A DNA stretch of 17,068 nucleotides from Campylobacterota bacterium (GCA_034722955.1 JAYEOM010000044.1:1-17068); one strand, 5' to 3'; counted from the first letter of the stretch, positions 133 to 16,866 are shown. The notes: generated by a model not told the origin, from the letters alone. Made by a program: numbers and translations.

Positions 133-594
133 TTATATTTTTGCAATGACCTCTTCAAACTCTCTGGTTATCTTCTCTTTCTCTCCTCTGTCGAGACACT
201 CGATAGTGTGGATGTAGAGAGTCTCTCCCTCAATATCCAGTGTTAGTGTACCGGGTGTTAGAGTTATGGAGTTTGCCAGCAGCAGCTTCTTCCAGTCACT
301 TGTCAAGTCTGTTTTGACTGCGACTATAGCCGGAGAGAGTTTCATATCTCTACTGAGTACTCTATGTGCAATACTTATATTGGATTTTACGAGATTTTTG
401 ATAAGAACAGATAGATATGCCACTAGCCAGACAGGAGTGATCCACCCATAACTCTCACCCTCAAATATCCTCGTGTAGAGCAGTGCCACACCCACGCTTG
501 CCAACACTCCTATAGTGATATTTTGCATATCAACTCTGTCACTCAACACCATCCATATCACAAACAAAAATAGTGACCAAAATAGGATTCTCAT
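133..594 (-). CDS. mbsA: Na+/H+ antiporter subunit E family (MrpE/MnhE); MbsA/MbxA-like subunit, last gene of the operon
   Basis: N-terminal TM helices plus the MrpE signature LLANSITLTPGTLTLDI...LYIH. Start moved from the ORF-track 642 to ATG 594 (MRILFW), which follows AAGGGG and lies just after the mbsN stop. Confidence 0.9.
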   Translation of the reverse strand: MRILFWSLFLFVIWMVLSDRVDMQNITIGVLASVGVALLYTRIFEGESYGWITPVWLVAYLSVLIKNLVKSNISIAHRVLSRDMKLSPAIVAVKTDLTSDWKKLLLANSITLTPGTLTLDIEGETLYIHTIECLDRGEKEKITREFEEVIAKI

Positions 595-604
595 AGATAC
601 CCCC

Positions 605-997
605 TTACCTGTTTTTTGGCATATATAAAAAATCAGAAGCATACTTGGTCACACCCAAATACTCCTCATCTAGCTTCAGTGAATCCGGAGGGCAGACATC
701 TGTACAGAGAGAGCACCAACAGCATCGTCCATAGTCTATACGGGGTATACATTGAGAGTTGTTCTTTGTATTGTACTCTCTATCTGTCTTGATCATATCT
801 ATCGCATCATTCATACATACATCTTGACAGTTGGCACACCCTATGCAGTCAACTAGCAGATTGGTATGAAACCCTCTATATCCTAACGCTGTCTCTTTTT
901 TGACATCAGGATAAGCGATAGTGTTTGGTTTTTGAAAAAAAGCCCCCCATATACTCAAGGGTGATACTACTCCGCTGATATCTATCTTCCACTTCAT
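605..997 (-). CDS. mbsN: 2x[4Fe-4S] ferredoxin-type subunit (NuoI-like); MbsN/MbxN
   Basis: YP...GYRGFH motif, CIGCANCQDVC and IDYGRCCWCSLCTDVCP cluster motifs; RBS GAGGTG; follows the NuoD-like gene. Confidence 0.9.
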   Translation of the reverse strand: MKWKIDISGVVSPLSIWGAFFQKPNTIAYPDVKKETALGYRGFHTNLLVDCIGCANCQDVCMNDAIDMIKTDREYNTKNNSQCIPRIDYGRCCWCSLCTDVCPPDSLKLDEEYLGVTKYASDFLYMPKNR

Positions 998-1010
998 AAA
1001 CTCACCTCTC

Positions 1011-2114
1011 TCATCTCTCTATCTCAGGAGGACATATGCCCAGTGAGTTCATGATCAGAGCTACATCACTCAGCTCTGCTCCTACTAGTAGCTCCTCTAA
1101 CAGTGTAAAGGCATGCACTAGAGATGGGCCTCTAACCTGCATACGCCTGATCTTTTCACTGCCATCTCCTGCCATATAGTAGGCGAACTCTCCTCTGGAG
1201 CTCTCTACTTTGACCCAAGTATCATCTTTGGGAAGTTTGAACTTTCTGTGAGTGGGCATCTTGGTCATGATCTCGCCTTTTGGCATCTTGGATATCACTT
1301 GATCCAAAATATGAATACTCTGATCCATCTCTGCACGCCTGACCAATGCTCTAGCATAGACATCACCTGCCTGCTCTATGGGTACTTCAAACTCCAGCTC
1401 ATCATAGACTAGATAGGGAGCATCTTTTCGGACATCTGCTTGGATACCGCAACCACGAAGTACTTGACCCACATATCCATTTTGGATACAATCTTCAGGA
1501 GTGACTACACCTACACCTACTGCTCTAGCCTTGAAGGAGGCGTTGTTGATGAAGATATCATCATAGACCTTGAGTCTGGTTTTGAAATGCTCCAACACCC
1601 TCTCTACTCTCTCTAGGAATCCATCAGGCAACTCTCTCCTGACACCACCGGGATATACATACATATGATAAACCCTGCCGCCTGTCAACTCTTCGAAAAG
1701 ATCAAGGATGAGATCTCTATCAGCTATCGCCCACTGACCTACTGCATAGAGTCCTATCGAACCACTCTGACCGGCAAGCCATAGACACTGTGAAGCCAAA
1801 CGGGAGAGTTCCAGTATCATCACTCGGATATAGTTGGCTCTTGGTGATACCTCTATACCTGCCAACTCCTCTACTGCCAATGCGAAGTTGACCTCATTGG
1901 GGTCTGGCTCCGGTACACAGATACGACAGACGATCGTAAAGGCTTGGATCACGGTGCGTCTCTCAATCAGCTTTTCAAAACCGCGATGTAGATACCCTAC
2001 ATGTGTAGTTGCTCTCTGGATCGTCTCACCTATCAGATCAAGCTCTATACTCATGTTACCTGTGATACCCGGGTGTTGGGGACCATGAAAGATCGTAATA
2101 TGTCTACTTCCCAT
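1011..2114 (-). CDS. mbsL: NuoD / hydrogenase large-subunit homolog lacking a complete Ni site; MbsL/MbxL
   Basis: GPQHP, GYLHRGFEKL, RICVPEPD, ELSRLASQ, VESSRGE, RGPS and C-terminal ICPPEIER. Start set to ATG 2114 (MGSRH), downstream of AAGGAG at 2122-2127. Confidence 0.92.
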   Translation of the reverse strand: MGSRHITIFHGPQHPGITGNMSIELDLIGETIQRATTHVGYLHRGFEKLIERRTVIQAFTIVCRICVPEPDPNEVNFALAVEELAGIEVSPRANYIRVMILELSRLASQCLWLAGQSGSIGLYAVGQWAIADRDLILDLFEELTGGRVYHMYVYPGGVRRELPDGFLERVERVLEHFKTRLKVYDDIFINNASFKARAVGVGVVTPEDCIQNGYVGQVLRGCGIQADVRKDAPYLVYDELEFEVPIEQAGDVYARALVRRAEMDQSIHILDQVISKMPKGEIMTKMPTHRKFKLPKDDTWVKVESSRGEFAYYMAGDGSEKIRRMQVRGPSLVHAFTLLEELLVGAELSDVALIMNSLGICPPEIER

Positions 2115-2685
2115 CAGAACTCTCCTTGGCATCTTCTTTGGCCTTTTGGGCTGCTGCTTTCTGTGCTTTTTTTAGGGCTCTGAGCCGTTTCATCTCTTTC
2201 TTGACATCTATATTGTCATCACGACCCTCTCTAAATGCGAGATGATCGTTGACAAACTCAAGTGTATCAAACTCCCGTCTGAGTGGGGGTGTATGTACCC
2301 AGTTCTCCAAGCTCAACTCTGTGAGGTTATCATTGCCAGGGAACTCTATACCATACATCTCATGAAGATCCCTCTCCATGATCTCAGCTTGTCTAAATCT
2401 CTCTCTCAGCGATCTTATCTCGGCACTCTCTCTGCTGATCATAGTCTGCACCATCATAGTATGTTTTCGATCGTAAGTGGTCAGCACATAGGTGATAGCG
2501 AAATGATCCTCCTCTATCCAGTCTGTACATGTGATGGCGTTGAGTGTTTTGTAGCTATAGTGATCGCTGAGCATATATATCAGCTCAAAGATACGGTGTC
2601 TCTCTACTGCAACTTTCGCCAAGTCTACTCTCTTGACCTCTATATCGTCAGTGGCAAAACGATTTTTGATTTCATTGAACATCAT
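2104..2685 (-). CDS. mbsK: NADH-quinone oxidoreductase subunit C family (NuoC-like); MbsK/MbxK
   Basis: AITCTDW, ERDLHEMYGIEFPG and PPLRREF motifs of the NuoC family; ATGA overlap with the mbsJ stop; GGAGG RBS (start 2685 or 2682). Confidence 0.9.
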   Translation of the reverse strand: MMFNEIKNRFATDDIEVKRVDLAKVAVERHRIFELIYMLSDHYSYKTLNAITCTDWIEEDHFAITYVLTTYDRKHTMMVQTMISRESAEIRSLRERFRQAEIMERDLHEMYGIEFPGNDNLTELSLENWVHTPPLRREFDTLEFVNDHLAFREGRDDNIDVKKEMKRLRALKKAQKAAAQKAKEDAKESSDGK

Positions 2686-3299
2686 AAGCCTCCATCATAT
2701 AGATACCAGTCTGCATCATAAGCGGGTGAGACGATATCACCCAGTACTGCCTCTTGGTTCTTTCGATAAAAGGGATAGTTCTCTTCATATCTCTGCCAAG
2801 AGGAGGCTTTGCCCTCTGCGATCTCTCTTTGCAGTTCTATAAACCCCTCTAGTATACTCTCGGGACGAGGCATACATCCATTGACATAGATATCTACAGG
2901 GAGATAATCTTCAAGTCTCTTGATCGTATTGTAGGAGTCCCAGTACATTCCTCCATTGACAGTACAGGAGCCAAGTGCCAAAATATATTTGGGATTTGCC
3001 ATCTGCTCATATGTACGGATGATGCGTCTGAGTGTCTTGTAGGAGCAGTACCCTGATACTATGATCACATCAGCCTGTCTAGGTGTCGCAGCTCCGCGAA
3101 TACCCAATCTCTCAGCATCGTAGCGACTAGTAAAGGTCGGGGGCATCTCTATAGCTCCGCACCCTGTACCATAGGCGAGGACAAATATCGATCTCTTGCG
3201 AAACCAATCCATCAGAAAATCTACACTGCTTTGGTGTGAAGTGTCCGAGTTGAGATCGCTCTCCATCATCTGCTGCTCTTTTAGAAAACCTTCATCCAT
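2682..3299 (-). CDS. mbsJ: NuoB / hydrogenase small-subunit homolog with [4Fe-4S] cluster; MbsJ/MbxJ
   Basis: GTGCGAIEMPP, RYDAERLG, TPRQAD, EQMANPKY, GSCTVNGG and PVDIYVNGCMPRPE. ATG 3299, just after the mbsM stop, is preferred over TTG 3314. Confidence 0.92.
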   Translation of the reverse strand: MDEGFLKEQQMMESDLNSDTSHQSSVDFLMDWFRKRSIFVLAYGTGCGAIEMPPTFTSRYDAERLGIRGAATPRQADVIIVSGYCSYKTLRRIIRTYEQMANPKYILALGSCTVNGGMYWDSYNTIKRLEDYLPVDIYVNGCMPRPESILEGFIELQREIAEGKASSWQRYEENYPFYRKNQEAVLGDIVSPAYDADWYLYDGGL

Positions 3300-3301
3300 A
3301 C

Positions 3302-4198
3302 CTACTGCCCCCAATCTGTTGCTAAGATAAGCCCGACTATAGCGATAACTGTCGGTACTCTCATCAGAAAATCTACACTTTGCGGTGTCTTAAATCGTCC
3401 ATATAGTGCACCCAAAGCTGTCACCAGCAGAAAGAGCATAAAGGTTTTGCCGATCAATGATAAAAATCCATCCGCACCTCCCAAAAAGAGATTGACCATC
3501 AGAACTAACTTTGCAAAAGTGAAGATAGCACTTTGGCTCATCAAGAGTGCCAAAAATTTACCACTAAACTCTGCTGCCGGTCCAGAGTATACTTCGACTG
3601 GTGCCCCCACTACATCGAAAGGTGACTGCCCCATCATCGCAACAAAAGAGAAGAGAGCAGCTACAAAGAGGAGGGGATAGGCAAAAGCGTTGATAGTTTC
3701 GGCTTGCTGGGATGCTATGGTAGCGATATCTGCACTCTGGCTGAGACTCATCAGAGCGATCACTGAGATATAAAATGGTAACTCCATCGCAAACATACGA
3801 GTAAGCCCTCGCGTGACACCCATCACACCAAAGGGATTTCCACTCACTCCTACTCCCATCGCATTGCCTAGGGGGCCTAGCAGCATCAGGTAGAGTACCA
3901 AAAATAGGTTCCCATGCTCACTCAAACCGCTAAAGCTCTCACTCTGGTAAAAGAGAGGGACAAAAAAGAGGGTCATTATCGCCCCTGTCATCATGATGAC
4001 GGGTCCTAGATAGAACATCCAGCCATGCGAAATACTCTCTTTTTTTCCAAAGAATTTGATGCTGTCGTAGAGTGATTGAAAAACTGTTGGTCCTATCCTC
4101 CTCTGGAATCTTGCCGTGATATTACGATAGAGACCATAGTATAGAAACCCAACTATATAGGCTGTAAGCAGTGTACCTATCAAATTTAACAGTATCAT
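3302..4198 (-). CDS. mbsM: Complex I subunit 1 family (NuoH-like) membrane anchor; MbsM/MbxM
   Basis: RNITARFQRRIGP...DSIKFFGKKE and SPFDVVGAPVEVYSGPAAEFSG motifs; multiple TM helices; ATG 4198 overlaps the mbsH' stop (ATGA). Confidence 0.92.
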   Translation of the reverse strand: MILLNLIGTLLTAYIVGFLYYGLYRNITARFQRRIGPTVFQSLYDSIKFFGKKESISHGWMFYLGPVIMMTGAIMTLFFVPLFYQSESFSGLSEHGNLFLVLYLMLLGPLGNAMGVGVSGNPFGVMGVTRGLTRMFAMELPFYISVIALMSLSQSADIATIASQQAETINAFAYPLLFVAALFSFVAMMGQSPFDVVGAPVEVYSGPAAEFSGKFLALLMSQSAIFTFAKLVLMVNLFLGGADGFLSLIGKTFMLFLLVTALGALYGRFKTPQSVDFLMRVPTVIAIVGLILATDWGQ

Positions 4199-5946
4199 TT
4201 TATACCCCACCATAATAGAATCAAAGCAAACACTACTGCTATGTTAAAATTTTGTACTAGATTTCCAGAGTAGATCCTTCTGACAAACTCAGAGGTAGCC
4301 CAGAGCTGCTTGGCGATATAGTCATAAAAAAAACTGCTGGAGTTTTTGAGTATGATAGCGACAAACCATACTCTCTTTAGCTCTCTGCCCATAGAGTAGC
4401 CATAGTGTAGATGAGTACCTTCGTTAGGAACCTCTCCGCAATAGGCAATATCAAACCGATCTTTTGCCTCTTTGACCTTGGATGAGAGAGAGAGGAGGAG
4501 AGAGAGTACAATAATAAAGAGTATCATAAATGCACTCATAACTACCAAACCGTTGTAGCTGGCTATCGCTGTCCCTAGAGTCTCATAAGCAGCAAAAGGC
4601 AACTGCTCTACACCCAACTCAACAAGTATGGTATTGAGATATGGAACAATCAAGCCCGGAAATACTCCCATCACTATCAATATGAGAGATATGATATATT
4701 GTGGCAATAGAAAGATGAACGGTACCTCTGCTACACTCTCCAGACTCTTGGAGGTAGGATGTCCCAGATAGATACCATAGATCATCTTGTATATGTAGAG
4801 GAAAGCAGAAGCACCTGCGAACATCATAGCAGCAAGCATCAGTAGATTTTTCCCCTCTAGCAGTGTAGTATACATGAGAAATTTAGAAGCGAAACCACCC
4901 AATGGAGGCATACCTGCCAAGACGATGATCCCTATCAGGAGCAGTACGAATGATTGGGGCATACGATATATCAAACCACCCAGTTGGCTATATTTTGATC
5001 GTGCAGTGACATAGATGATCCCTGCTATATTGATAAAGAGCATGAGTTTGACTAGGGTATGGATGAGAGAGTGATAGAGAGCAGCACTAACGCCATCTGC
5101 CAGAGACAGTACAGTGACGATATATCCCAATTGGGCTATAGATGAGTAGGCGAGAGCTCTCTTCATGCTATCTTCATTGAGTGCTTTAAATGCTGCGATG
5201 ATCGAACTCAACAGACCCATAACCCCCAGTGTATATCCTAACCAGTGATGCGAGAGTGTAGAGATATCAACCACATAGATCAAGAGTATGATCATAGCAT
5301 ATATGCCCATCTTGGAGAGAACTGCCGAGAGAAAAGGGGTGAAGAGATCAGCAGACTCGTCATAGCTATCTACTAACCAATAGTGAAACCCTATAGTCCC
5401 AAGTTTGACAAAAAAAGCAAAAAGCATCAAGATGATAAAAATAGTACGCATGTTGTCAGACAACAAGAGAAAGGCTTGATGTGCATCTGCATATAGAAAA
5501 CTATGAGAAGTTGAGTAGAGTATCATGATGCCCGCTAGCAGACTCATGGCAGAAGCCATAGCAAAGATGACATATTTGAGCAGAGCTTTACGGCTCAAAT
5601 CATAAGAGAGCAGGAGATAGGTTGTCACACTCATAACTTCCCAACCGACAAAAAAGAGTAGATAGTCCTCCGCATATACGATCAGGAATAGTCCTGCACT
5701 CAGCAGATAAAATAGAAGATAGAAACTCTTTGTCTGCCTATATTTAGGTGTGGCGATAGAGAGGATCATGATAGAAAAAGCTATCAATAGTGCAAAGAAG
5801 TTTGCCAAAGCTGTAGCCCTCAGACCTATCACAACCTCATCCAACCCCACTCTGCTCAAATCATACTGCCAAGAGAGTGAAGTATCAAAAAGAGATGTGA
5901 CGACCCAGAGTATAAAGAGTGAAATGACAAAAGGTATATATCTCAT
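4195..5946 (-). CDS. mbsH': Proton-conducting antiporter-like membrane subunit (MrpA/D, NuoL-like) with C-terminal extension; MbsH'/MbxH'
   Basis: FFVGWEVMS, FVKLGTIGFHYWL, SAVLSKMG, KRALAYSSIAQLGY, HTLVKLMLF and LAGMPPLGGFASK; 583 aa with a long C-terminal tail ending in a TM segment; RBS AGGAG. Confidence 0.9.
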   Translation of the reverse strand: MRYIPFVISLFILWVVTSLFDTSLSWQYDLSRVGLDEVVIGLRATALANFFALLIAFSIMILSIATPKYRQTKSFYLLFYLLSAGLFLIVYAEDYLLFFVGWEVMSVTTYLLLSYDLSRKALLKYVIFAMASAMSLLAGIMILYSTSHSFLYADAHQAFLLLSDNMRTIFIILMLFAFFVKLGTIGFHYWLVDSYDESADLFTPFLSAVLSKMGIYAMIILLIYVVDISTLSHHWLGYTLGVMGLLSSIIAAFKALNEDSMKRALAYSSIAQLGYIVTVLSLADGVSAALYHSLIHTLVKLMLFINIAGIIYVTARSKYSQLGGLIYRMPQSFVLLLIGIIVLAGMPPLGGFASKFLMYTTLLEGKNLLMLAAMMFAGASAFLYIYKMIYGIYLGHPTSKSLESVAEVPFIFLLPQYIISLILIVMGVFPGLIVPYLNTILVELGVEQLPFAAYETLGTAIASYNGLVVMSAFMILFIIVLSLLLSLSSKVKEAKDRFDIAYCGEVPNEGTHLHYGYSMGRELKRVWFVAIILKNSSSFFYDYIAKQLWATSEFVRRIYSGNLVQNFNIAVVFALILLWWGIK

Positions 5947-7400
5947 GAGGAGACTCCTAAAAGTGCCGTGATATAGCTTTGACTATCGAGCAAGGCTGCT
6001 GATGCCTGCTCTATAGAGCCGGAGATCAACCATGGTGCAGTACCTATAACGACCAGTATCAATGCCAGCAGAGTAAATAGACTCTTCTGACCAAGCGTGA
6101 GAGAGAGCTCTGTTCTCTCTCTCTCTCTACTCAGTAGTCTGCCCGAGATCTTAAAGTAGTAGATACTCTCTATGAGTGATGCGATGATGATCATAGCCAA
6201 TACTATAAACTCTCCACTAACTGCAAAACTCTTGAGTGCCAAAAACTTCCCTGTAAAACCCAATAGAGGCGGTATACCCAAGAGAGAGAGCATAGCTAAA
6301 AACATGATCACCATCAAAAATGGTGAACTAAGCTCCTTGAGTATATCTATGTCTTCACTCTGATATGCCTGCTCTATAGAGGCGATAGCCAAAAATAGCA
6401 TCATCTTTGCTACAGAGTGTGCCAATATAATAAAGAGTGCCGCTATGAGAGCATCGCTATTTTGCAGTGCCATCACAGAGAAGATCAATCCAACCTGTCC
6501 CAATGAGGAGTAGGCAAAAACTCTCTTGAGGTTCGTCTGTTTGAGAGCAACTACCTCAGCCACCAGCATGCTCAATGCACCTATATAGAGTAGAAAGATA
6601 CCAAACTCACCATTTGGCATAAATAGATATAGAATATGAAAAAAGAGAAAGAGATAAGCCTTGACAACAATAGCAGAGAAGAGTGCATCTACAGGGGCAG
6701 AGGAGCCTTCATAGATATCACTAACCCAAAAGTTGAGAGGAAATATCTCTACCTTGAGACCAAATCCCAATAGCAGCAGGAGGGTGATCACTATCTTGAT
6801 ATTGTATGGCAGTGTCACAAACGATTCACTCAAGATAGCAAGATTTAGTGAGCCTAGATAGATATATATCATAGCTATCGCAAAGATCAAAAATACCGAA
6901 GCTAGCATACCGGTCAACAGGTACTTGATCCCTGCTTCGAGTGCCTTGGGTGTTTTGCGGTAAGCACTCAGGATATAGGCAGTGATACCGGCTATCTCAA
7001 AAAAGACATAGATGTTGAAGATATCACTGCTCAATACCAACCCTATACTAGATGCAAGCAGCATATTGATCAAGATGAAAAATTTATTCTCATTCTCATA
7101 GGGATTGACTCTTCTAAGCCTCAAGTAGTAGAGAGAAAATATAGTCATCAGAAATGTGAAGAGTACCACAAAAAAGAGTGATGCTTTGTTCAAAACAAAA
7201 GAGATACCCAAGGGAGGATTGATAGCTATGACCTCTACATGCCAAGAGGTAGAGAGTATCAGTGAGAGGGAGAGTAGAAAGAGAGATGCCTGCATCAATG
7301 TAGAGGTATACGCAACACCATTTTTGCCTAGTTTTGATACTATGGGTGTAGCAAACCCAAAGAGAAGTGGCAGTGCTACAAAATATATACTGCTCATCAT
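5943..7400 (-). CDS. mbsH: Proton-conducting antiporter-like membrane subunit (MrpD/MnhD family); MbsH/MbxH
   Basis: DIFNIYVFFEI, LEAGIKYL, FGLKVEIFPLNFW, LKRVFAYSSLGQVG, HSVAKMMLF and LLGIPPLLGFTGK; ATGA overlaps at both ends. Confidence 0.92.
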   Translation of the reverse strand: MMSSIYFVALPLLFGFATPIVSKLGKNGVAYTSTLMQASLFLLSLSLILSTSWHVEVIAINPPLGISFVLNKASLFFVVLFTFLMTIFSLYYLRLRRVNPYENENKFFILINMLLASSIGLVLSSDIFNIYVFFEIAGITAYILSAYRKTPKALEAGIKYLLTGMLASVFLIFAIAMIYIYLGSLNLAILSESFVTLPYNIKIVITLLLLLGFGLKVEIFPLNFWVSDIYEGSSAPVDALFSAIVVKAYLFLFFHILYLFMPNGEFGIFLLYIGALSMLVAEVVALKQTNLKRVFAYSSLGQVGLIFSVMALQNSDALIAALFIILAHSVAKMMLFLAIASIEQAYQSEDIDILKELSSPFLMVIMFLAMLSLLGIPPLLGFTGKFLALKSFAVSGEFIVLAMIIIASLIESIYYFKISGRLLSRERERTELSLTLGQKSLFTLLALILVVIGTAPWLISGSIEQASAALLDSQSYITALLGVSS

Positions 7401-7786
7401 CTTCCCATCTCATTCATCTTGTCGATATCTCTTTTGCCTGTCAGCTTGTGGTATTCGATCGCAAAACTGACACCTAGTGCAAAAACAGCCATCCCTATAA
7501 CGATAGCTGTCAATATCATCGCATGAGGGACTGGATCGTTCATAGCGACAAATTCAGTATATCCATCACCCAATATAGGAGCTGTAAAGCCCTTGACAAA
7601 AGTACCCCCTATAAAAAAGAGAAAAACCGCACTCTCCATGATCGCGATGCTGATAAAGACTTTGATAAAATCCCTCTGTGTCAAGAGTCCAAACAGCCCT
7701 ACAAAAAAGAGTGACATAGAGCCTACCACAACTATAGTATCTATCACCTCTTTTTGGTCAAGATATGCAAAGATCATCTCAGTCAT
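7397..7786 (-). CDS. mbsG: Na+/H+ antiporter subunit C family (MrpC/MnhC, NuoK-like); MbsG/MbxG
   Basis: GLFGLL...IKVFISIAIME and DPVPHAMILTAIVIG signature. ATG 7786 is well spaced from GAGGAG, whereas the ORF-track GTG 7792 overlaps that RBS. Confidence 0.92.
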   Translation of the reverse strand: MTEMIFAYLDQKEVIDTIVVVGSMSLFFVGLFGLLTQRDFIKVFISIAIMESAVFLFFIGGTFVKGFTAPILGDGYTEFVAMNDPVPHAMILTAIVIGMAVFALGVSFAIEYHKLTGKRDIDKMNEMGR

Positions 7787-8486
7787 CTTCACTCCTCATG
7801 AGTAGATTTTGAACTATGAGACTCATCTCACTTCCCACTTTGACCCCTACTATGATATAGATCAGAGGGATGATACCTCCACTTAGCAACATACCCATCT
7901 CGGAGATATCATGAGGCAGAAAATTGCCCAAGAAACGATCAACTGTCCATAATCCTATCAAACCGATCAAAACATATGATACACCTGCTAGAGTCTCTAG
8001 TATAGAGATCAGTGAGTGTAAAACTTCAAACTCCCTATATGAGATCAGCAGTAGCAGTACACCGCTAGCTATGATAACACCTCCCTGAAAACCGCCACCG
8101 GGACTCAAATGTCCATAGATCATCACATATATACCAAAGAGAGTGATAATAGGAAAAAGTAACTTTGCCGTTACTTGGAGGATAAAGTTACTCTCTTCTC
8201 TCTGCGATACAGCCTCTTGCGAAGTGAGCATCACCCCTATCCCCAGTGCAGCGATGAAGAGTACAGCGATCTCGCCTAGCGTATCAAATCCACGAAAGTA
8301 TACGACTACAGAGGTGACAGCATTTGCCACTCCATCCTGACTGTTGATAGATAACAATCTATCGCCGGCACGCTCTATAGTTTTGGGCATATTTTCCAGT
8401 AGGATAGTCAGTATAGTCAGTACCAGCAGTGCACTCAGAGCAAAACCACTATAGGTTTGAGTAGGGATATCCCTCTTGAGATTCAT
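7779..8486 (-). CDS. mbsE: MrpB/MnhB-domain subunit fused to an MrpA C-terminal (MbhE-like) segment; MbsE (MbxF)
   Basis: NAVTSVVVYFRGFDTLGE (MbhE / MrpA C-terminal motif) and GHLSPGGGFQGG (MrpB motif) in one 235-aa protein. Confidence 0.9.
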   Translation of the reverse strand: MNLKRDIPTQTYSGFALSALLVLTILTILLENMPKTIERAGDRLLSINSQDGVANAVTSVVVYFRGFDTLGEIAVLFIAALGIGVMLTSQEAVSQREESNFILQVTAKLLFPIITLFGIYVMIYGHLSPGGGFQGGVIIASGVLLLLISYREFEVLHSLISILETLAGVSYVLIGLIGLWTVDRFLGNFLPHDISEMGMLLSGGIIPLIYIIVGVKVGSEMSLIVQNLLMRSEDD

Positions 8487-8722
8487 GGTTCTGCCTTTAA
8501 GTGTTTGAGTGCCATCAAAAAGATCAAAGAGCTGATCCCAACACCGATAACCGCTTCTGTCATAGCAACATCAGGAGCTTGAAAGAGAAAGAATAGCACC
8601 ACACTCCCCAATCCCACCCCCATAAAGAGGATGATAGCATCAGCAACCCTCTCTTGGGTCACAGCAGCAAAAGCGATAACAACAATAGCGATAAAAGATC
8701 CCAATATGATCATCCCTATCAT
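8483..8722 (-). CDS. mbsD: Small membrane subunit, DUF4040 / MbhD family; MbsD/MbxD
   Basis: Three hydrophobic segments with the QAPDVAMTEAVIG motif; RBS GAGGAG; ATGA overlaps. Confidence 0.9.
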   Translation of the reverse strand: MIGMIILGSFIAIVVIAFAAVTQERVADAIILFMGVGLGSVVLFFLFQAPDVAMTEAVIGVGISSLIFLMALKHLKAEP

Positions 8723-9048
8723 CGATGCTCCTCTTGAAAATCCTTCAACTCATCTATCTTTTTGGGGTTGAAATAGGGTATATCTATCTTGTGTGAAGCT
8801 CTAGCGATCACCGAAGAGGAGATGGGATTTGTCAAAAATACAAATGCCCCCAGTAGTATAAGCTTGAATGCCCAAGATGGCTCTAGGCATACAGCTCCTA
8901 TGATCACCAGCATAGTACCCATTGTCGTGGTTTTGGCTCCAACATGCATGCGAGTATAGACATCTGGCATACGAAGCAGACCTATGGCACTAATGACAAA
9001 TGCTATAACCCCTAAAAAGATAAATATAGATCCAATGATTGTTAACAC
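8719..9048 (-). CDS. mbsC: Na+/H+ antiporter subunit G family (MrpG/MnhG); MbsC/MbxC
   Basis: IGLLRMPDVYTRMHVGAK and FLTNPISSSVIARA motifs; GTG start directly abutting the mbsB stop. Confidence 0.92.
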   Translation of the reverse strand: MLTIIGSIFIFLGVIAFVISAIGLLRMPDVYTRMHVGAKTTTMGTMLVIIGAVCLEPSWAFKLILLGAFVFLTNPISSSVIARASHKIDIPYFNPKKIDELKDFQEEHR

Positions 9049-9297
9049 TTATATGCCTTTTTCGATATATCGTCCAAAAATCGTCGTTCCTAGAAATCCT
9101 ATCAATCCAAACACCAGAGCGATATCTATATAGATACTTCGTCTGAAGTAGAGGGATAGGAGTACCAGCAGTGAGACTGCCATGATACTGATGGTATCAA
9201 ACGCCACAACTCTATCACTCAGAGTAGGTCCCTTGAGAAGCCTTATCGATGCTAGTGCCATTGCAAACAGTAGTACTATGCTTACTATTTCAAACAT
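9049..9297 (-). CDS. mbsB: Na+/H+ antiporter subunit F family (MrpF/MnhF); MbsB/MbxB, first gene of the operon
   Basis: RLLKGPTLSDRVVAFD and IDIALVFGLIGFLGT motifs. Start set to ATG 9297 (MFEIVS), downstream of AGGAGAG. Confidence 0.92.
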   Translation of the reverse strand: MFEIVSIVLLFAMALASIRLLKGPTLSDRVVAFDTISIMAVSLLVLLSLYFRRSIYIDIALVFGLIGFLGTTIFGRYIEKGI

Positions 9298-9325
9298 TAT
9301 CTCTCTCCTATATAGTTTGGGCAAA

Positions 9326-9331
9326 AGTATA
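9326..9331 (-). promoter_or_regulatory. Candidate sigma70 -10 box (TATACT) for the mbs operon
   Basis: TATACT on the minus strand about 30 nt upstream of the mbsB ATG, in AT-rich DNA; no clear -35. Confidence 0.4.
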
Positions 9332-9370
9332 CTCAAATTTACAAAATAGTATGATGAAATAGAGATAATT

Positions 9371-9446: not shown

Positions 9447-10358
9447 TTACATATCTTCGCTGTGTGTTCTTCTGTGATATCGTTCGACTATTTCAGGGTC
9501 ATGGTGCAGATTGATCTTGGCATCCTCTTTCCCCTCATAGTTGATCTTGGCAAGAGCATAACGGATCGACTCTAGTCTAGCTCTCTTTTTGTCATTGCTA
9601 TCGACCATGATCCATGGAGCATAACCTGTATGTGTACGACTGAACATCTCCTCTTTATAGTATGTTACTTTGTCCCACATCTCCTGAGCTTTTTGATCTA
9701 CTGGGCTGAGTTTCCAATGTTTTAAAGGGTTACTCATACGCTCCTTAAATCTCTTCTTCTGATTCTCTTTGGTGATACTAAACCAAAATTTGATCAAGAT
9801 GATCCCATCATCGATCAATGCATGCTCTATCTCAGGTACCTCTTTCATAAATCTATCATACTGTACAGGTGTACAGAAGTCAAATACCGGCTCTACGATA
9901 GCTCTATTGTACCAGCTCCTATCAAAAAAGACTATCTCTCCCTCATTTGGCAAATGTTGGAAATAACGCTGAAAGTAGAACTGTCCTGTCTCTACATCTG
10001 TTGGTTTTGGCAGTGCTACAACTCTGAATTTTCTAGGGTTTAGATATTGAGTAAAGCGTTTGATAGCTCCACCCTTTCCTGCTGCATCACGCCCCTCAAA
10101 GATGATCATAACTCTCTTATTGTTATCATATACCCAGTTTTGCAATTTGATCAGCTCAACCTGTAGCTCTACCAACTCCTGCTCATACTCTACATTGCGT
10201 GTGATCTTAGCAAGCTTCTTCTTTCTCATCAATTGGGAGAGACCGCTCTTGGTTTTCAAAAGATGAAATTTTTGCTCCAACTCTTTGATGACACTTTGTG
10301 CCTTTTTATCCTCTATATGACCCTTCAGATAGTCCAAATCTTGAAAAATAGTTTTCAT
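9447..10358 (-). CDS. ppk2: Polyphosphate kinase 2 (single-domain)
   Basis: Walker A FEGRDAAGKGG, YFQRY, Walker B FDRSWYNRA and lid WKLSPVD; RBS AAGGAG. Confidence 0.96.
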   Translation of the reverse strand: MKTIFQDLDYLKGHIEDKKAQSVIKELEQKFHLLKTKSGLSQLMRKKKLAKITRNVEYEQELVELQVELIKLQNWVYDNNKRVMIIFEGRDAAGKGGAIKRFTQYLNPRKFRVVALPKPTDVETGQFYFQRYFQHLPNEGEIVFFDRSWYNRAIVEPVFDFCTPVQYDRFMKEVPEIEHALIDDGIILIKFWFSITKENQKKRFKERMSNPLKHWKLSPVDQKAQEMWDKVTYYKEEMFSRTHTGYAPWIMVDSNDKKRARLESIRYALAKINYEGKEDAKINLHHDPEIVERYHRRTHSEDM

Positions 10359-10633: not shown

Positions 10634-13600
10634 TTGAAAGTACTTAATACACAATACCATAGTTCTAGTGAGTTAAAAGCATTTATCATCAAAAATTCTA
10701 TAGCTGAAAATAGAGATATTTTACTGCAAATTTTTACCGGGATTTGCGATACTGAATTTATCGAAAACTTAATATTGGGGATTAAAAACTTAATACCGCA
10801 TATCAAGATCATAGGGAGTACAACTAGTGGAGAGATCCTAGAAGAGAGAGCTTGTGAAGATTCAACAATCTTATCGTTTTCACTCTTTGAGGATACAACA
10901 GTTAGAACCTATTGTACCCAGCTAATTGACGATAGCTATCAACTTGCCAAGAATCTTACTGACCAATTTGATCCAAAGCAGAGTCCAAAAGTGGCTATAA
11001 GCTTTGTAGATGGTCTTCATGTGAATGGTGAAGAGTATATCAATGGCTTTAATGATTATGATAAAGATTTGATCGTTGCGGGTGGATTGGCAGGTGATAA
11101 TGCTCAGTTTGTCGATACTATTGTCTTCACAGAAGAGAGAGTGGCATCAAATGGTGCGGTTGTGGCACTTCTCTTTAGTGAAAAACTTGAGATACATACC
11201 AAAGCCAGCTTCGGCTGGGAAAATATTGGTAAGTCGATGACCATCACAAAAGCAGTAAAAAATAGAGTTTATGAGATAGATGATGTAAAACTTGTCGACA
11301 TCTATGCCAAATATCTAGGAGAGGATGTCGCACTTCGGCTTCCTGAAACTGGGATAGAGTTTCCACTGATTGTAAAACGAAATGGTATAAATATTCCAAG
11401 AGCTGTTATCCATAAAAACAGTGATGGCTCTTTGGTCTTTGCGGGCAACCTCAATGTAGGTGACAAGGTAACATTCGGCTATGGAAATATTGAAACTATT
11501 GTGGATTGTGGAGAGGCTATATATACCGACAGTGATATTCATAACAGTGAAGCTATCTTTGTCTACTCCTGCATGGCGAGAAAAAATCTACTCCAAGAGA
11601 GTATCGATGAAGAGTTAGCTTCTTTGGCCGGCATCAGTAGTGTGAGCGGATTTTTTACCTATGGAGAGTTCTATTCAGGTGGCAACTCATCAACTAACCA
11701 ACTCTTAAATCAGACGATGACTATATTGAGCTTGAGTGAGAATCATTCTAGCAAAAGAGGTAGCACCGTACCTAAACAGAGAGAGACTAATGAGAGTAAA
11801 CCTAAACATATTCACAGCTTGACACTTAAAGCTCTATCGCATCTGATTGCTCAGACTTCAGCAGAGCTAGAGGAGATAAACAGTTCACTTCACTCTAGAG
11901 TGAAGATAGAAGTAGAAAAAAACCGATATAGAGATCAACAACTCAATCAACAACTCAATCATCAGACAAAGTTATCACAAATGGTAGAGTTGATCGATGC
12001 TACAGGGTTGTTTGAAGAGCGTGAAAACTTACAAAAAAGTTTAGAGAAGATCATAAGGATATCTTCTGAGGCACTGAATATATCAAGAGTAAGTATATGG
12101 CTCTACAATGAGGATAGGAGTGCCATGGAGTGTATTGTGAGTCTTCAAAAATCAAAAGATCAAAAATACTCGGCATATTTGCATGTGGAGGCCAAAAATC
12201 ATACAAGTTATTTCAGAGCATTAGATAGTGGAGATCCCATTGTTATCAATGATGCCGAGCACCATAAAATCACTCTTGACTTTATGGAAAATTATCTCAA
12301 ACCACTCAATCTAAAATCTATGCTTGATGTTCCTATCAGGAGAGGAGGTGAGACGATCGGTGTCATATGCAATGAAGAGGTTGACACTATCAAGGAGTGG
12401 TCAAGATATGAGATCAATTTTTCCAAATCTATTGCAAAATCCATATCACTTCTACTAGAGATTGATCAGAGAAAAAAATCCGATCGTCTCTTGAGGGAGC
12501 AGACAGAGGAGCAGCAGCTACTTTTATCTCTATTTGATATAGGAAATAGTGTACTATTCAAGTGGAATAACGATGACCGCTGGAGTGTGAAATATGTATC
12601 AAAAAGTGTTACCAACCTTCTCGGTTACTCTCAAAGTGATTTTCAATCAGGTAGGATTAACTATATCTCCTGTATTCATGCAGATGATTTGGAGATGGTG
12701 ACATATGAAGTTGAAGAGGCTACGACATCAGACAAGAAATTCGTTCAACACACTCCCTATAGAGTTATTACAAAAGATGGTGATATAAGATGGGTACTTG
12801 ATTATACCGTTATCGCTAGATATATGGATAGAGTAATTCACTACATAGGCTATATTTCAGATGTGACGAAACAGAGAGAGAAAAACGAGCAACTATTTGA
12901 GCAGTCTCGCCTTGCACAGATGGGGGAGATGATGGCTATGATCGCTCACCAATGGCGACAACCGCTCTCTGCTATCGCTGCTATGAGTGGAGCCATTACC
13001 CTGAAGGCGAAACTAAATAGCCTTGATATAGATACTACGATTGAATTTGCAGATAAAATCAACTCTTATACACAACACTTGAGCCAAACTATTGATGATT
13101 TTAGAGCATTTGCCAAATCAGATAAAGAGACAAAAGAGACAAATTACACTAAAATGGTTCAAGAAGTTTTAGAGATAGTAGAGCCATCAATCAATATAAA
13201 AAATATTGATCTAATCAAAGAGTTTTATTGCGAATGCAGCTTTAACTCTTATCCAAGAGAGATCAAACAGGTTCTGCTCAATATTATTAAAAATGCTGAA
13301 GATGTTTTACTGGAGAGAGAGGTCAAAAAACCCTATATTAAGATAGAGACTTTTGAAGAAGATGGTAATTTTATCTTAACTATCAGCGATAATGGCGGGG
13401 GAGTACCTGACGAGATTATAAGACAGATTTTTGATCCCTACTTTTCAACAAAATTGGAAAAACATGGCACTGGATTGGGACTCTATATGTCAAAAACTAT
13501 TATCGAAGAGCACTGCAACGGTCAATTGACTGTTGCGAATGGTGAAGATGGTGCAGTATTCTCTATATCATTGCCAAACGTTCACATCGATGAAAACTAG
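10634..13600 (+). CDS. Cytoplasmic sensor histidine kinase: FIST_N/FIST_C - GAF - PAS - HisKA - HATPase
   Basis: FIST motifs (IIGSTTSGEI, AGGLAGD, GW, EFPL, YSCMAR, GFFTYGEF); GAF (SRVSIW, SMLDVPI, GVICNE); PAS (YVSKSV..LLGY, IHADD, YRVITKDGDIRWV); H-box IAHQWRQP; N-box QVLLNIIKNA; DNGGG, FDPYFSTK and GTGLGL. No TM helix evident. TTG start after GAGGA. Confidence 0.93.
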   Translation: MKVLNTQYHSSSELKAFIIKNSIAENRDILLQIFTGICDTEFIENLILGIKNLIPHIKIIGSTTSGEILEERACEDSTILSFSLFEDTTVRTYCTQLIDDSYQLAKNLTDQFDPKQSPKVAISFVDGLHVNGEEYINGFNDYDKDLIVAGGLAGDNAQFVDTIVFTEERVASNGAVVALLFSEKLEIHTKASFGWENIGKSMTITKAVKNRVYEIDDVKLVDIYAKYLGEDVALRLPETGIEFPLIVKRNGINIPRAVIHKNSDGSLVFAGNLNVGDKVTFGYGNIETIVDCGEAIYTDSDIHNSEAIFVYSCMARKNLLQESIDEELASLAGISSVSGFFTYGEFYSGGNSSTNQLLNQTMTILSLSENHSSKRGSTVPKQRETNESKPKHIHSLTLKALSHLIAQTSAELEEINSSLHSRVKIEVEKNRYRDQQLNQQLNHQTKLSQMVELIDATGLFEERENLQKSLEKIIRISSEALNISRVSIWLYNEDRSAMECIVSLQKSKDQKYSAYLHVEAKNHTSYFRALDSGDPIVINDAEHHKITLDFMENYLKPLNLKSMLDVPIRRGGETIGVICNEEVDTIKEWSRYEINFSKSIAKSISLLLEIDQRKKSDRLLREQTEEQQLLLSLFDIGNSVLFKWNNDDRWSVKYVSKSVTNLLGYSQSDFQSGRINYISCIHADDLEMVTYEVEEATTSDKKFVQHTPYRVITKDGDIRWVLDYTVIARYMDRVIHYIGYISDVTKQREKNEQLFEQSRLAQMGEMMAMIAHQWRQPLSAIAAMSGAITLKAKLNSLDIDTTIEFADKINSYTQHLSQTIDDFRAFAKSDKETKETNYTKMVQEVLEIVEPSINIKNIDLIKEFYCECSFNSYPREIKQVLLNIIKNAEDVLLEREVKKPYIKIETFEEDGNFILTISDNGGGVPDEIIRQIFDPYFSTKLEKHGTGLGLYMSKTIIEEHCNGQLTVANGEDGAVFSISLPNVHIDEN
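11934..11961 (+). repeat. In-frame 12-bp tandem duplication (QQLN x2) in the kinase coiled-coil linker
   Basis: ATCAACAACTCA ATCAACAACTCA ATCA. Confidence 0.8.
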
Positions 13601-15759: not shown

Positions 15760-16866
15760 ATGATAACTGTGCAGATAAACTATGGTAGTGAAATATCGTA
15801 TGCCAAAAAAACTTTGGCTCAATCTATAGGTAATTTATCAGAGATTATCATTACACTAAAAGAGTTGACTTTAGCTGATAGTGTTGACCTGCTCTTTTAT
15901 AATGAGGAGCATAAACACTATTATGATAAAATAAAAAATAACAATATCCCCATACAATTTCTAGAGAATGATACCATCAGTATGATAGGTAAAGCCTATT
16001 TAGAAAAAAGAGCTTATCGTAGTTCACATACACTTTATGATAAATACTACAACATTTCACTCGATAATCCTTTCAAAATAGATATTTCGTCTCAACTTAT
16101 TTTTCCTATAATAAATCAAGAGCAAGTGATAGGGATGATTCGCTTTTCAAAAAATAAATATATGTTTGAAAACCATATAGTAGATAAATTAACCAAATTA
16201 GAAGGTTCTTTTTTTGACATCTTCTCATCAGAGATCTACCGAAGAGTGGAGAAGCCAAACAGTAAACTCTTCTCTATCAGAGAGGAGGAAGTCAACAGAT
16301 CACTCTATATACTAAAGAGAGAGCTTGATAGATTATCAACAGATACTCACAATCCAGAGATCAAAAAACTGCTTCTTAGGGCTGAAGAGAATATCGATTC
16401 AGTTTATGACTATATCAATCTAGTTCCCAACGACACAAATATCCTCAAGCAAGAGGTTCGCAGTAGTTCTGACCATAGCAGTATAAAAGTTATCATAGCA
16501 GATGATGTTCATATGAATGTGAAAATACTCAATGCTATGATCAAGGGAGATAATATATCGGAGATCAATTTTGCTTATGATGGTAATGAAGCGTTAGATA
16601 AGATCAAGCAAGTGAAAAAAGATGCAAGTGGTATCAATATACTCTTTTTAGATCACTATATGCCAGGAAAGCTGGGTCTTGAAGTTGCCGAAGAGATAAG
16701 AGAAGATGAAAAAAAGGATCAGAATAACAATACTATCATCATCTCTATTACCAATGACCCCTCTGCCATAGAAGCCAAAAAGGGTCTATATGATTACCGT
16801 ATTTCCAAACCTTTCGTAAAGTCAGATGTCACTATGGTGATGAACAGAATCCAACAGAGTTGTTAG
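15760..16866 (+). CDS. Response regulator-like protein: N-terminal GAF-like region, helical linker, C-terminal receiver domain
   Basis: Receiver motifs VIIADD, AYDGNEAL, FLDHYMP (phospho-Asp), ISIT and SKPF. GAF-like features: SMIGKAY, YNISLDNP, SQLIFPII..QVIGMI. GTG 15769 is better spaced from AAGGA and may be the true start. Confidence 0.8.
   Translation: MITVQINYGSEISYAKKTLAQSIGNLSEIIITLKELTLADSVDLLFYNEEHKHYYDKIKNNNIPIQFLENDTISMIGKAYLEKRAYRSSHTLYDKYYNISLDNPFKIDISSQLIFPIINQEQVIGMIRFSKNKYMFENHIVDKLTKLEGSFFDIFSSEIYRRVEKPNSKLFSIREEEVNRSLYILKRELDRLSTDTHNPEIKKLLLRAEENIDSVYDYINLVPNDTNILKQEVRSSSDHSSIKVIIADDVHMNVKILNAMIKGDNISEINFAYDGNEALDKIKQVKKDASGINILFLDHYMPGKLGLEVAEEIREDEKKDQNNNTIIISITNDPSAIEAKKGLYDYRISKPFVKSDVTMVMNRIQQSC

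Follow-up and report, generated by a model that had tools for sequence, protein, structure and literature searches.

A thirteen-gene operon predicted to encode a membrane-bound complex of the MBS type in a Sulfurovum-like Campylobacterota bacterium

Introduction

The MBS complex (formerly MBX) of Pyrococcus furiosus, the structure of which is available as PDB entry 6U8Y, consists of 13 subunits, with A, B, C, D, E, G, H, H', and M forming the membrane arm and J, K, L, and N the peripheral arm (PMC7684303; here and below, statements on published work refer to the portions of each cited source available to us). In MbsJ, the proximal cluster is bound by just three cysteines, C28, C93, and C123, a fourth, C25, being too distant from the cluster owing to a short loop, and in MbsL, two vestigial Ni-Fe cysteines are left, C85 and C385 (Yu et al. 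2020, PMC7684303). Here, we analyze a 13-gene operon that encodes the same set of subunit types in a Campylobacterota bacterium (GCA_034722955.1). The stretch of DNA under study, called the window below, is 17,068 bases long and constitutes the whole of contig C44 in a 2.51-Mb genome (140 contigs, 99.97% complete).

Bacterial complexes of the Mbx type have already been described in Thermotoga, in proteobacteria, and in Endoriftia, the symbiont of Riftia (PMC9431562, PMC4758237, PMC11636981). The 13-subunit MBX of Thermotoga maritima, a bacterial MBS homologue that has an Mrp module like that of the window, has been proposed to reduce elemental sulfur (S0) together with a flavoprotein of the NSR/CoADR type (PMC9431562). 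In the "mbx-like" operons of Thermotoga and proteobacteria, a GltD-type flavoprotein replaces the NuoI subunit or is fused to it (PMC4758237). By its description, the Riftia symbiont is, like the host of the window, a sulfur-oxidizing autotroph with the reductive tricarboxylic acid (rTCA) cycle, although it is a gammaproteobacterium; its putative Mrp-Mbx was annotated by homology only, and its function and direction are stated to be unknown there (PMC11636981).

The hydrogenase MBH (PDB 6CFW) and other group-4 [NiFe] hydrogenases share ancestry with the window complex in the module of J, K, L, M, and N and in the Mrp-like subunits. Unlike the window complex, MBH has four Ni-Fe cysteines, a proximal cluster with four cysteines, and a single antiporter-like subunit. 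A group related to the group-4 hydrogenases that has no Ni-Fe ligands and carries Mrp-like subunits has been defined, with Mbx counted as one of its types (PMC6349859). The window complex, in which the Ni-Fe ligands are lost and Mrp-like subunits are present, fits that definition as given there.

Results

Similarity to the P. furiosus MBS complex

Positions 133–9336 of the minus strand hold 13 co-oriented open reading frames, which are transcribed in the order B-C-D-E-G-H-H'-M-J-K-L-N-A and were all assigned with Pfam and NCBIfam. When the longest frames are considered, 10 of the 12 junctions overlap, B and C abut, and a gap of 13 bases separates L from N. The 13 subunit types are identical to those of P. 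furiosus MBS, and both complexes have two antiporter-like pumps, a C-terminal extension on H', a complete Mrp-like module, and a plain NuoI-like N. The operon differs from the alphabetical subunit listing of the MBS paper in that gene A comes last. Furthermore, the host is a mesophilic bacterium, and its L subunit is ~45% identical to MbsL.

Eight subunits (L, J, H, H', M, N, D, and G) were compared with the PDB, and in all eight cases the best match was the corresponding P. furiosus MBS chain of 6U8Y. The L subunit (1011–2132), which belongs to the NuoD/[NiFe] large-subunit family but has no Ni-Fe site, scored 325 bits against 6u8y_L, compared with 245 against complex I and 148 against MbhL. 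Similarly, the NuoB-family subunit J (2682–3314), the predicted carrier of the proximal [4Fe-4S] cluster, scored 218 bits against 6u8y_J and 130 against the next match. The two antiporter-type pump subunits, both with a Proton_antipo_M domain, behaved in the same way: H (5943–7400, 485 aa; PF00361, 200.8 bits) scored 204 bits against 6u8y_H and 139 against MbhH, and H' (4195–5946, 583 aa) scored 185 bits against 6u8y_X (MbsH') and 114 against MbhH, in an alignment that reaches residue 578 of 583 and takes in the C-terminal extension. The NuoH-family subunit M (3302–4213; PF00146), the membrane anchor of the peripheral arm, gave 152 bits with 6u8y_M and 78 with MbhM. Among the smaller subunits, the MrpC/NuoK-like G (7397–7792; PF00420) scored 73.5 bits against 6u8y_G and 47.8 against MbhG; the NuoI-family N (605–997, 130 aa, Pfam Fer4 families), which has no flavoprotein fusion, scored 65.5 bits against 6u8y_N and 43.9 against the next match, with both of its CxxCxxCxxxC motifs for [4Fe-4S] clusters aligned; and the MbhD/DUF4040-like D (8483–8722, 79 aa; PF13244, 69.5 bits) had 6u8y_D, at 40 bits, as its sole match. 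For the six subunits that match both complexes, the scores against MBH were 26–177 bits lower than those against the MBS chains.

The residues around the predicted catalytic site tell the same story. Cys52, Cys117, and Cys147 of J correspond to C28, C93, and C123 of MbsJ, in an alignment that is ungapped through the loop. The window protein has glycine at the position of C25, a residue that is dispensable in the archaeal enzyme. The three ligand cysteines and this glycine are invariant in all 28 sequences compared (the window protein and 27 relatives), and J carries GC at the site where NDH and complex I carry a tandem CC. In L, the motifs RICVPEPD and CPPEIER align with RICVPEPD and CPPDIDR of MbsL, their cysteines being the equivalents of C85 and C385; the first cysteine of each Ni-Fe pair is kept and the other two are lost, leaving two of four. 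Motifs of this type are common to the whole clade of L proteins from Campylobacterota and Chromatiaceae. In the alignment with the ovine 49-kDa subunit, one His and one Tyr of the latter, which we take to be quinone ligands, are replaced by Thr and Val in L.

The charged residues of the pump subunits are kept in large part. H' retains all three pump residues (the equivalents of E128, K248, and H336), H retains two of three (E138 and K250), and M retains three of the five charged residues (D196, E203, and E211). The single residues considered in D and G, equivalent to MbsD E58 and MbsG E37, are both present.

The remaining members of the Mrp-like module are B (MrpF family, PF04066, 68.7 bits), which spans 9049–9297 from its first ATG at 9297 and whose longest frame begins at a TTG at 9336; C (MrpG family, 8719–9048), which scores 88.3 bits on PF03334 and 110.6 on NF009314 (cut-off 102); E (7779–8486, 235 aa), which joins the N-terminal part of MbhE (PF20501) to an MnhB domain (PF04039); and A (MrpE family, PF01899, 126.5 bits), whose frame covers 133–642 and which probably starts at the Met codon at 594. 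Subunit K (2104–2685; PF00329, 81.2 bits) belongs to the NuoC family and completes the peripheral arm.

From the subunit inventory, the PDB scores, and the motifs taken together, we predict that the 13 genes specify a membrane-bound, bacterial complex of the MBS type. A preliminary description of this DNA had read the same 13 co-oriented, mostly overlapping or abutting genes in the same order, and the reading frames and the Pfam and NCBIfam matches bear it out. Its claim that NuoE, NuoF, NuoG, and NuoA are missing also holds, since the Pfam/NCBIfam scan found no homologue of these or of NuoJ within the cluster. The match of the inventory to P. furiosus MBS is upheld by the assignment of all 13 subunit types, and the placement with MBS/MBX rather than with Nuo, Fpo, or a true hydrogenase agrees with the PDB scores, the motifs, and the tree of L described below.

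Phylogeny of the L subunit

A search with L against 1.84 billion cluster representatives gave 9457 matches at E ≤ 0.001. Just four full-length representatives scored more than 285 bits (P0123–P0126, 41–48% identity); below these, identity was ≤38%, and FpoD was found among them. A quick IQ-TREE tree (LG+G4, with SH-aLRT support) was built from 145 rows. Of these, 129 came from the 150 listed representatives, the other 21, with fewer than 330 query residues covered, being excluded, and 16 were added: the window protein, named relatives, the host's own NuoD, and Ignavibacteria NuoD.

In this tree, the window protein groups with eight other Campylobacterota rows and three Chromatiaceae rows (SH-aLRT 97), joined next by a Spirochaetales row and a metagenome-assembled genome (MAG) labeled Fibrobacter (95) and then by P0123 (99). 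This clade stands beside one made of P0124, P0145, P0125, and P0240 (96), and both lie inside an MBS-like group of 22 rows (90). The host's NuoD, FpoD, and 18 proteins in which the RxCGxC and DPCxxC motifs are intact fall outside this group. Both P0123 and P0125 have 6u8y_L as their best PDB match. The sister clade with P0125 includes Clostridiales, Peptostreptococcaceae, Helicovermis, Deltaproteobacteria, Myxococcota, WOR-3, Gammaproteobacteria, and Thermoplasmatota, and the names returned by a search with P0125 were all bacterial or Thermoplasmatota. Among the representatives found by the L search, no member of the Thermococcales was recognizable.

Distribution and conservation of the operon

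How widespread is this complex in the phylum? In a sample of 401 Campylobacterota genomes, an L protein of at least 69% identity occurs in five; 85 other genomes match at ≤41% identity only (NuoD-type), and 311 have no L match at E ≤ 1e-60. In the host's own family, the L gene is present in 34 of 250 genomes (E ≤ 1e-120), or 19 of 122 when high-quality genomes are considered; the carriers are spread over 6 of 11 genera and include 8 of the 13 other genomes of the host's genus. These counts make the MBS-type cluster a common accessory trait of the family. Of 44 loci in genomes of named species, 36 have titles of the Campylobacterota type (among them Sulfurovum, Sulfurimonas, Sulfuricurvum, and Arcobacteraceae), and the complete genome of the cultured Sulfurovum sp. 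CS9 (locus L023) is one of the carriers. Of the same 44, three at 65% identity belong to Spirochaetales or to a "Fibrobacter" MAG, and four from Ignavibacteria are NuoD-type. Named relatives of L include those of Allochromatium warmingii (72%), Thiocystis minor (71%), Sulfurospirillum sp. 1612 (70%), and Thiohalocapsa (69%).

The order of the 13 genes is identical in 15 related loci with full operons, and shorter loci are sub-strings of it, with no other order seen. The flanks, on the other hand, differ in all 16 loci compared, with any one flank family found in three at most, so that the operon appears as a self-contained and patchily distributed cassette. A fixed partner gene, including one for a GltD-type flavoprotein, was considered and rejected on the same counts.

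A few loci depart from the usual layout. A PAS-GGDEF-EAL gene lies inside the operon between L and N in L017 (11202–13217), a YhcG/DUF1016 nuclease gene occupies the same place in L030 (11145–12158), and a 189-aa reading frame with no Pfam match lies between J and K in L025 (8788–9357), L041 having a similar J–K gap. The inserted genes of L017, L030, and L025 were considered as extra subunits and rejected as unrelated cargo. One genome of the family has an in-frame TGA in its L gene (G515:C283:3112-4224), and another has a divergent copy at 54% identity (G514:C117:233-1327). Five genomes from another family (f4) of the host's taxonomic order (G296, G031, G043, G007, and G045) encode an L-like protein of 365–377 aa that is 34–35% identical to L over nearly its full length; this may be the simplified Nuo/Ech-like form described for Nautiliales (PMC4758237).

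The host genome

The best named matches of the host RpoB, at 85–91% identity, are to Campylobacterota, Epsilonproteobacteria, and Sulfurovum, which identifies the host, a bacterium of vents or brine, as a Sulfurovum-like Campylobacterota. A true NuoD, distinct from L, is encoded on contig C5 and groups with the Nuo sequences in the L tree. The genome also has one [NiFe] hydrogenase large subunit and three NrfD/PsrC-like genes. An ATP-citrate-lyase domain, a marker of the rTCA cycle, is present together with three oxoacid:ferredoxin oxidoreductases of the POR_N type, one of them in a single-chain form of 1188 aa. Neither Rnf nor nifH was found in the host genome.

With regard to sulfur oxidation, SoxZ is present and no SoxB above the cut-off was found in the host genome (best 108.7 bits versus 550), the contigs concerned in the Sox search being C58 and C48. 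The Sox system of the host may be incomplete or unusual.

The assignment of the host to Campylobacterota in the preliminary description is in accord with the RpoB result. The same description stated that its author knew of no account of MBS in this phylum. Within the literature searched, from which subscription journals fell outside coverage, no paper names an Mbx/MBS complex in Campylobacterota, Epsilonproteobacteria, or Sulfurovum, and to that extent the claim stands; it is weakened by the finding that the cluster is common in the host's family. The further point, that automated annotation hides the complex, is borne out for L, which public records call "NADH-quinone oxidoreductase subunit D."

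Partial association with an NSR/CoADR-like flavoprotein

Pyrococcus and Thermotoga pair MBS/MBX with NSR, and in T. maritima, mbxA and nsr both increase in the presence of S0 (PMC9431562). Among 16 related loci, three have a CoADR/NSR-like flavoprotein gene beside the operon. The host has such a gene at 5923–7272 (minus strand) on contig C138 (locus L062), and its product is 74% identical to that of the operon-side gene of locus L035. It lies 300 bases from the end of this 7.6-kb contig. The window breaks off 132 bases 3' of gene A, the downstream neighbor in the host genome being outside the contig, and no end overlap was found between the window contig and C138. Within the family, the flavoprotein gene occurs in 15 of the 34 genomes with the L gene, compared with 25 of the 216 without it, these being related genomes and not independent counts.

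Discussion

A proposed forward, ferredoxin-dependent sulfane-sulfur reductase

What might this complex do? The best-supported reading is that it catalyzes the MBS reaction in the forward direction, that is, ferredoxin-dependent reduction of sulfane sulfur coupled to the export of H+ and Na+; we put the probability of this reading at roughly 60%, judging from sequence. The window complex preserves the catalytic signatures and most of the pump residues considered, and its donor subunit N is unfused, as in Pyrococcus. Reduced ferredoxin, which the 2-oxoacid:ferredoxin oxidoreductases of the host would be likely to supply, would donate to the pair of [4Fe-4S] clusters in N, from which the electrons would reach the proximal cluster in J. 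Because only three cysteines bind that cluster, one of its irons would be free. At this open iron, in a pocket to which J, L, M, and an H' loop contribute, the S–S bond of polysulfide or another sulfane-sulfur compound would be reduced. A series of charged residues would relay the energy released to H and H', the two antiporter-like pumps, as well as to the Mrp-like Na+/H+ module (A, B, C, D, E, and G), building up an ion gradient.

In the cell, the complex may serve as an accessory, cytoplasm-facing sink that conserves energy and takes up low-potential electrons at times of abundant sulfur and scarce oxygen or nitrate, and it would work beside periplasmic enzymes of the Psr type. The presence of related clades in fermentative anaerobes (for example, Clostridiales and Peptostreptococcaceae) fits such a role. 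In these terms, the window complex is a fairly ordinary bacterial member of a known family that has been little tested biochemically.

Several observations weigh against this reading. The biochemistry of the family comes solely from a hyperthermophilic archaeon, at ~45% identity in L, and the L tree holds no P. furiosus MbsL, so that the anchor to MBS proper consists of the PDB scores and motifs. The window N has 130 aa compared with 208 for MbsN. In the pumps, the equivalent of MbsH H330 is Ile in H, and in M, the equivalents of MbsM E104 and E193 are Leu and Ser. The 79-aa D stops short of the Trp-rich C-terminal tail that the 94-aa MbsD uses for MBS dimerization; of the dimer contacts, which in MBS involve helix HL of H' and this tail, H' is aligned through its C-terminal region and the D tail is absent, although the D-tail contact is a feature of the archaeal assembly and not of catalysis. 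The link to an NSR-like flavoprotein is partial, as the subclade whose L is 70–73% identical to that of the window mostly has no such gene. Finally, the host, being an rTCA autotroph, itself uses up reduced ferredoxin, and a pump that burns ferredoxin would not be obviously useful to it in autotrophic growth.

Alternative readings

Could the open iron serve another acceptor? In such a case, an MBS-type pump might reduce an organic persulfide or disulfide (of coenzyme A or another thiol carrier) or thiosulfate, or it might pass electrons to NAD(P)+ through an unlinked partner. Redox partners do vary in this family, since N is fused to a GltD-type NAD(P)H flavoprotein in many bacterial relatives (PMC4758237). 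Furthermore, the best NCBIfam match of the window N is to the N-terminal 130 positions of a fused model of 611 positions (NF010590), and a gene resembling coenzyme A disulfide reductase is an occasional neighbor of the operon. Unlike the Thermotoga and proteobacterial operons as described, however, the window has a plain 130-aa N with two clusters, and no flavoprotein is a conserved neighbor among the 16 loci. The pocket motifs of J and L, moreover, are nearly identical to those of P. furiosus MBS. We consider a different acceptor unlikely.

A second possibility is that the same complex runs mainly in reverse, a Na+/H+ gradient from aerobic or nitrate respiration driving electrons from sulfide or polysulfide to ferredoxin and thereby feeding the rTCA cycle. 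The host has ATP-citrate lyase and ferredoxin-dependent oxoacid oxidoreductases, Rnf was not found in it, and the source of reduced ferredoxin in chemoautotrophic Campylobacteria has been stated to be unclear (bioRxiv 10.1101/717884). In the Riftia symbiont, the putative Mrp-Mbx has co-expression neighbors in common with the rTCA cycle rather than the Calvin cycle (PMC11636981). The closest relatives outside Campylobacterota are those of sulfur-oxidizing Chromatiaceae, yet these bacteria fix carbon by the Calvin cycle. The carriers also number only 34 of 250 genomes in the family and 5 of 401 in the phylum. Since autotrophs of the host's group are generally considered to use the rTCA cycle, so small a share argues that reversal is not a general solution to their ferredoxin supply. 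Related clades occur in fermenters as well, and the available portions of the MBS literature that were examined do not report a reversal of MBS. Operation mainly in reverse is, in our view, rather improbable; should it occur in sulfur-oxidizing rTCA autotrophs that have neither Rnf nor a known bifurcating enzyme, it would be a previously unrecognized route for making ferredoxin for CO2 fixation.

That the operon encodes an additional complex I in simplified form or an Fpo-like ferredoxin:quinone oxidoreductase, as the score of L on the NuoD model NF004739 (413 bits, cut-off 360) and its public name would have it, or a cryptic H2-evolving group-4 hydrogenase, as a weak Pfam NiFeSe_Hases match might hint, is very improbable, because the host has its true NuoD elsewhere, J has one Cys in place of the tandem pair, L has Thr and Val at the presumed quinone-binding positions, neither NuoA nor NuoJ is encoded in the cluster, L has lost two of the four Ni-Fe cysteines while the 18 true hydrogenases in the tree keep both motifs, and none of the 13 operon genes has a Pfam match to hydrogenase maturation families.

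Implications for sulfur metabolism in Campylobacterota

Sulfur respiration in Campylobacterota is usually explained by molybdenum enzymes that face the periplasm. Judging by gene content, roughly one in seven of the family's species-level genomes would also carry a cytoplasm-facing, ferredoxin-linked, ion-pumping complex, which public annotation divides between "NADH dehydrogenase" and "Mrp antiporter." If the complex reduces sulfane sulfur, as the forward reading holds, autotrophs of vents, caves, and brines would gain a further outlet for low-potential electrons, one that conserves energy. Operation in reverse would bear on the open question of how these autotrophs are supplied with reduced ferredoxin. 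Both ideas could be put to the test in the cultured carrier Sulfurovum sp. CS9, a mesophile that is far easier to work with than Pyrococcus.

Surroundings of the operon in the window

Scans at both ends of the operon showed promoter sites to be no more frequent than in shuffled sequences and found no terminator. A polyphosphate kinase 2 gene (9447–10358, minus strand; PF03976, 316.8 bits) precedes the operon by 110–150 bases in the same orientation, and it does not adjoin the operon in the related loci compared. Farther away, on the plus strand, the window encodes a 988-aa sensor kinase (10634–13600) with FIST, GAF, PAS, HisKA, and HATPase domains. A 368-aa protein (15760–16866) has a C-terminal receiver domain (residues 244–357) as its sole Pfam match, its N-terminal ~240 residues being without one. 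A search of sequencing runs with 133–9336 found no RNA run and four DNA runs that contain 70–99% of the sampled words; all four belong to a single study labeled as a brine metagenome, and one of them may be the source of the assembly.

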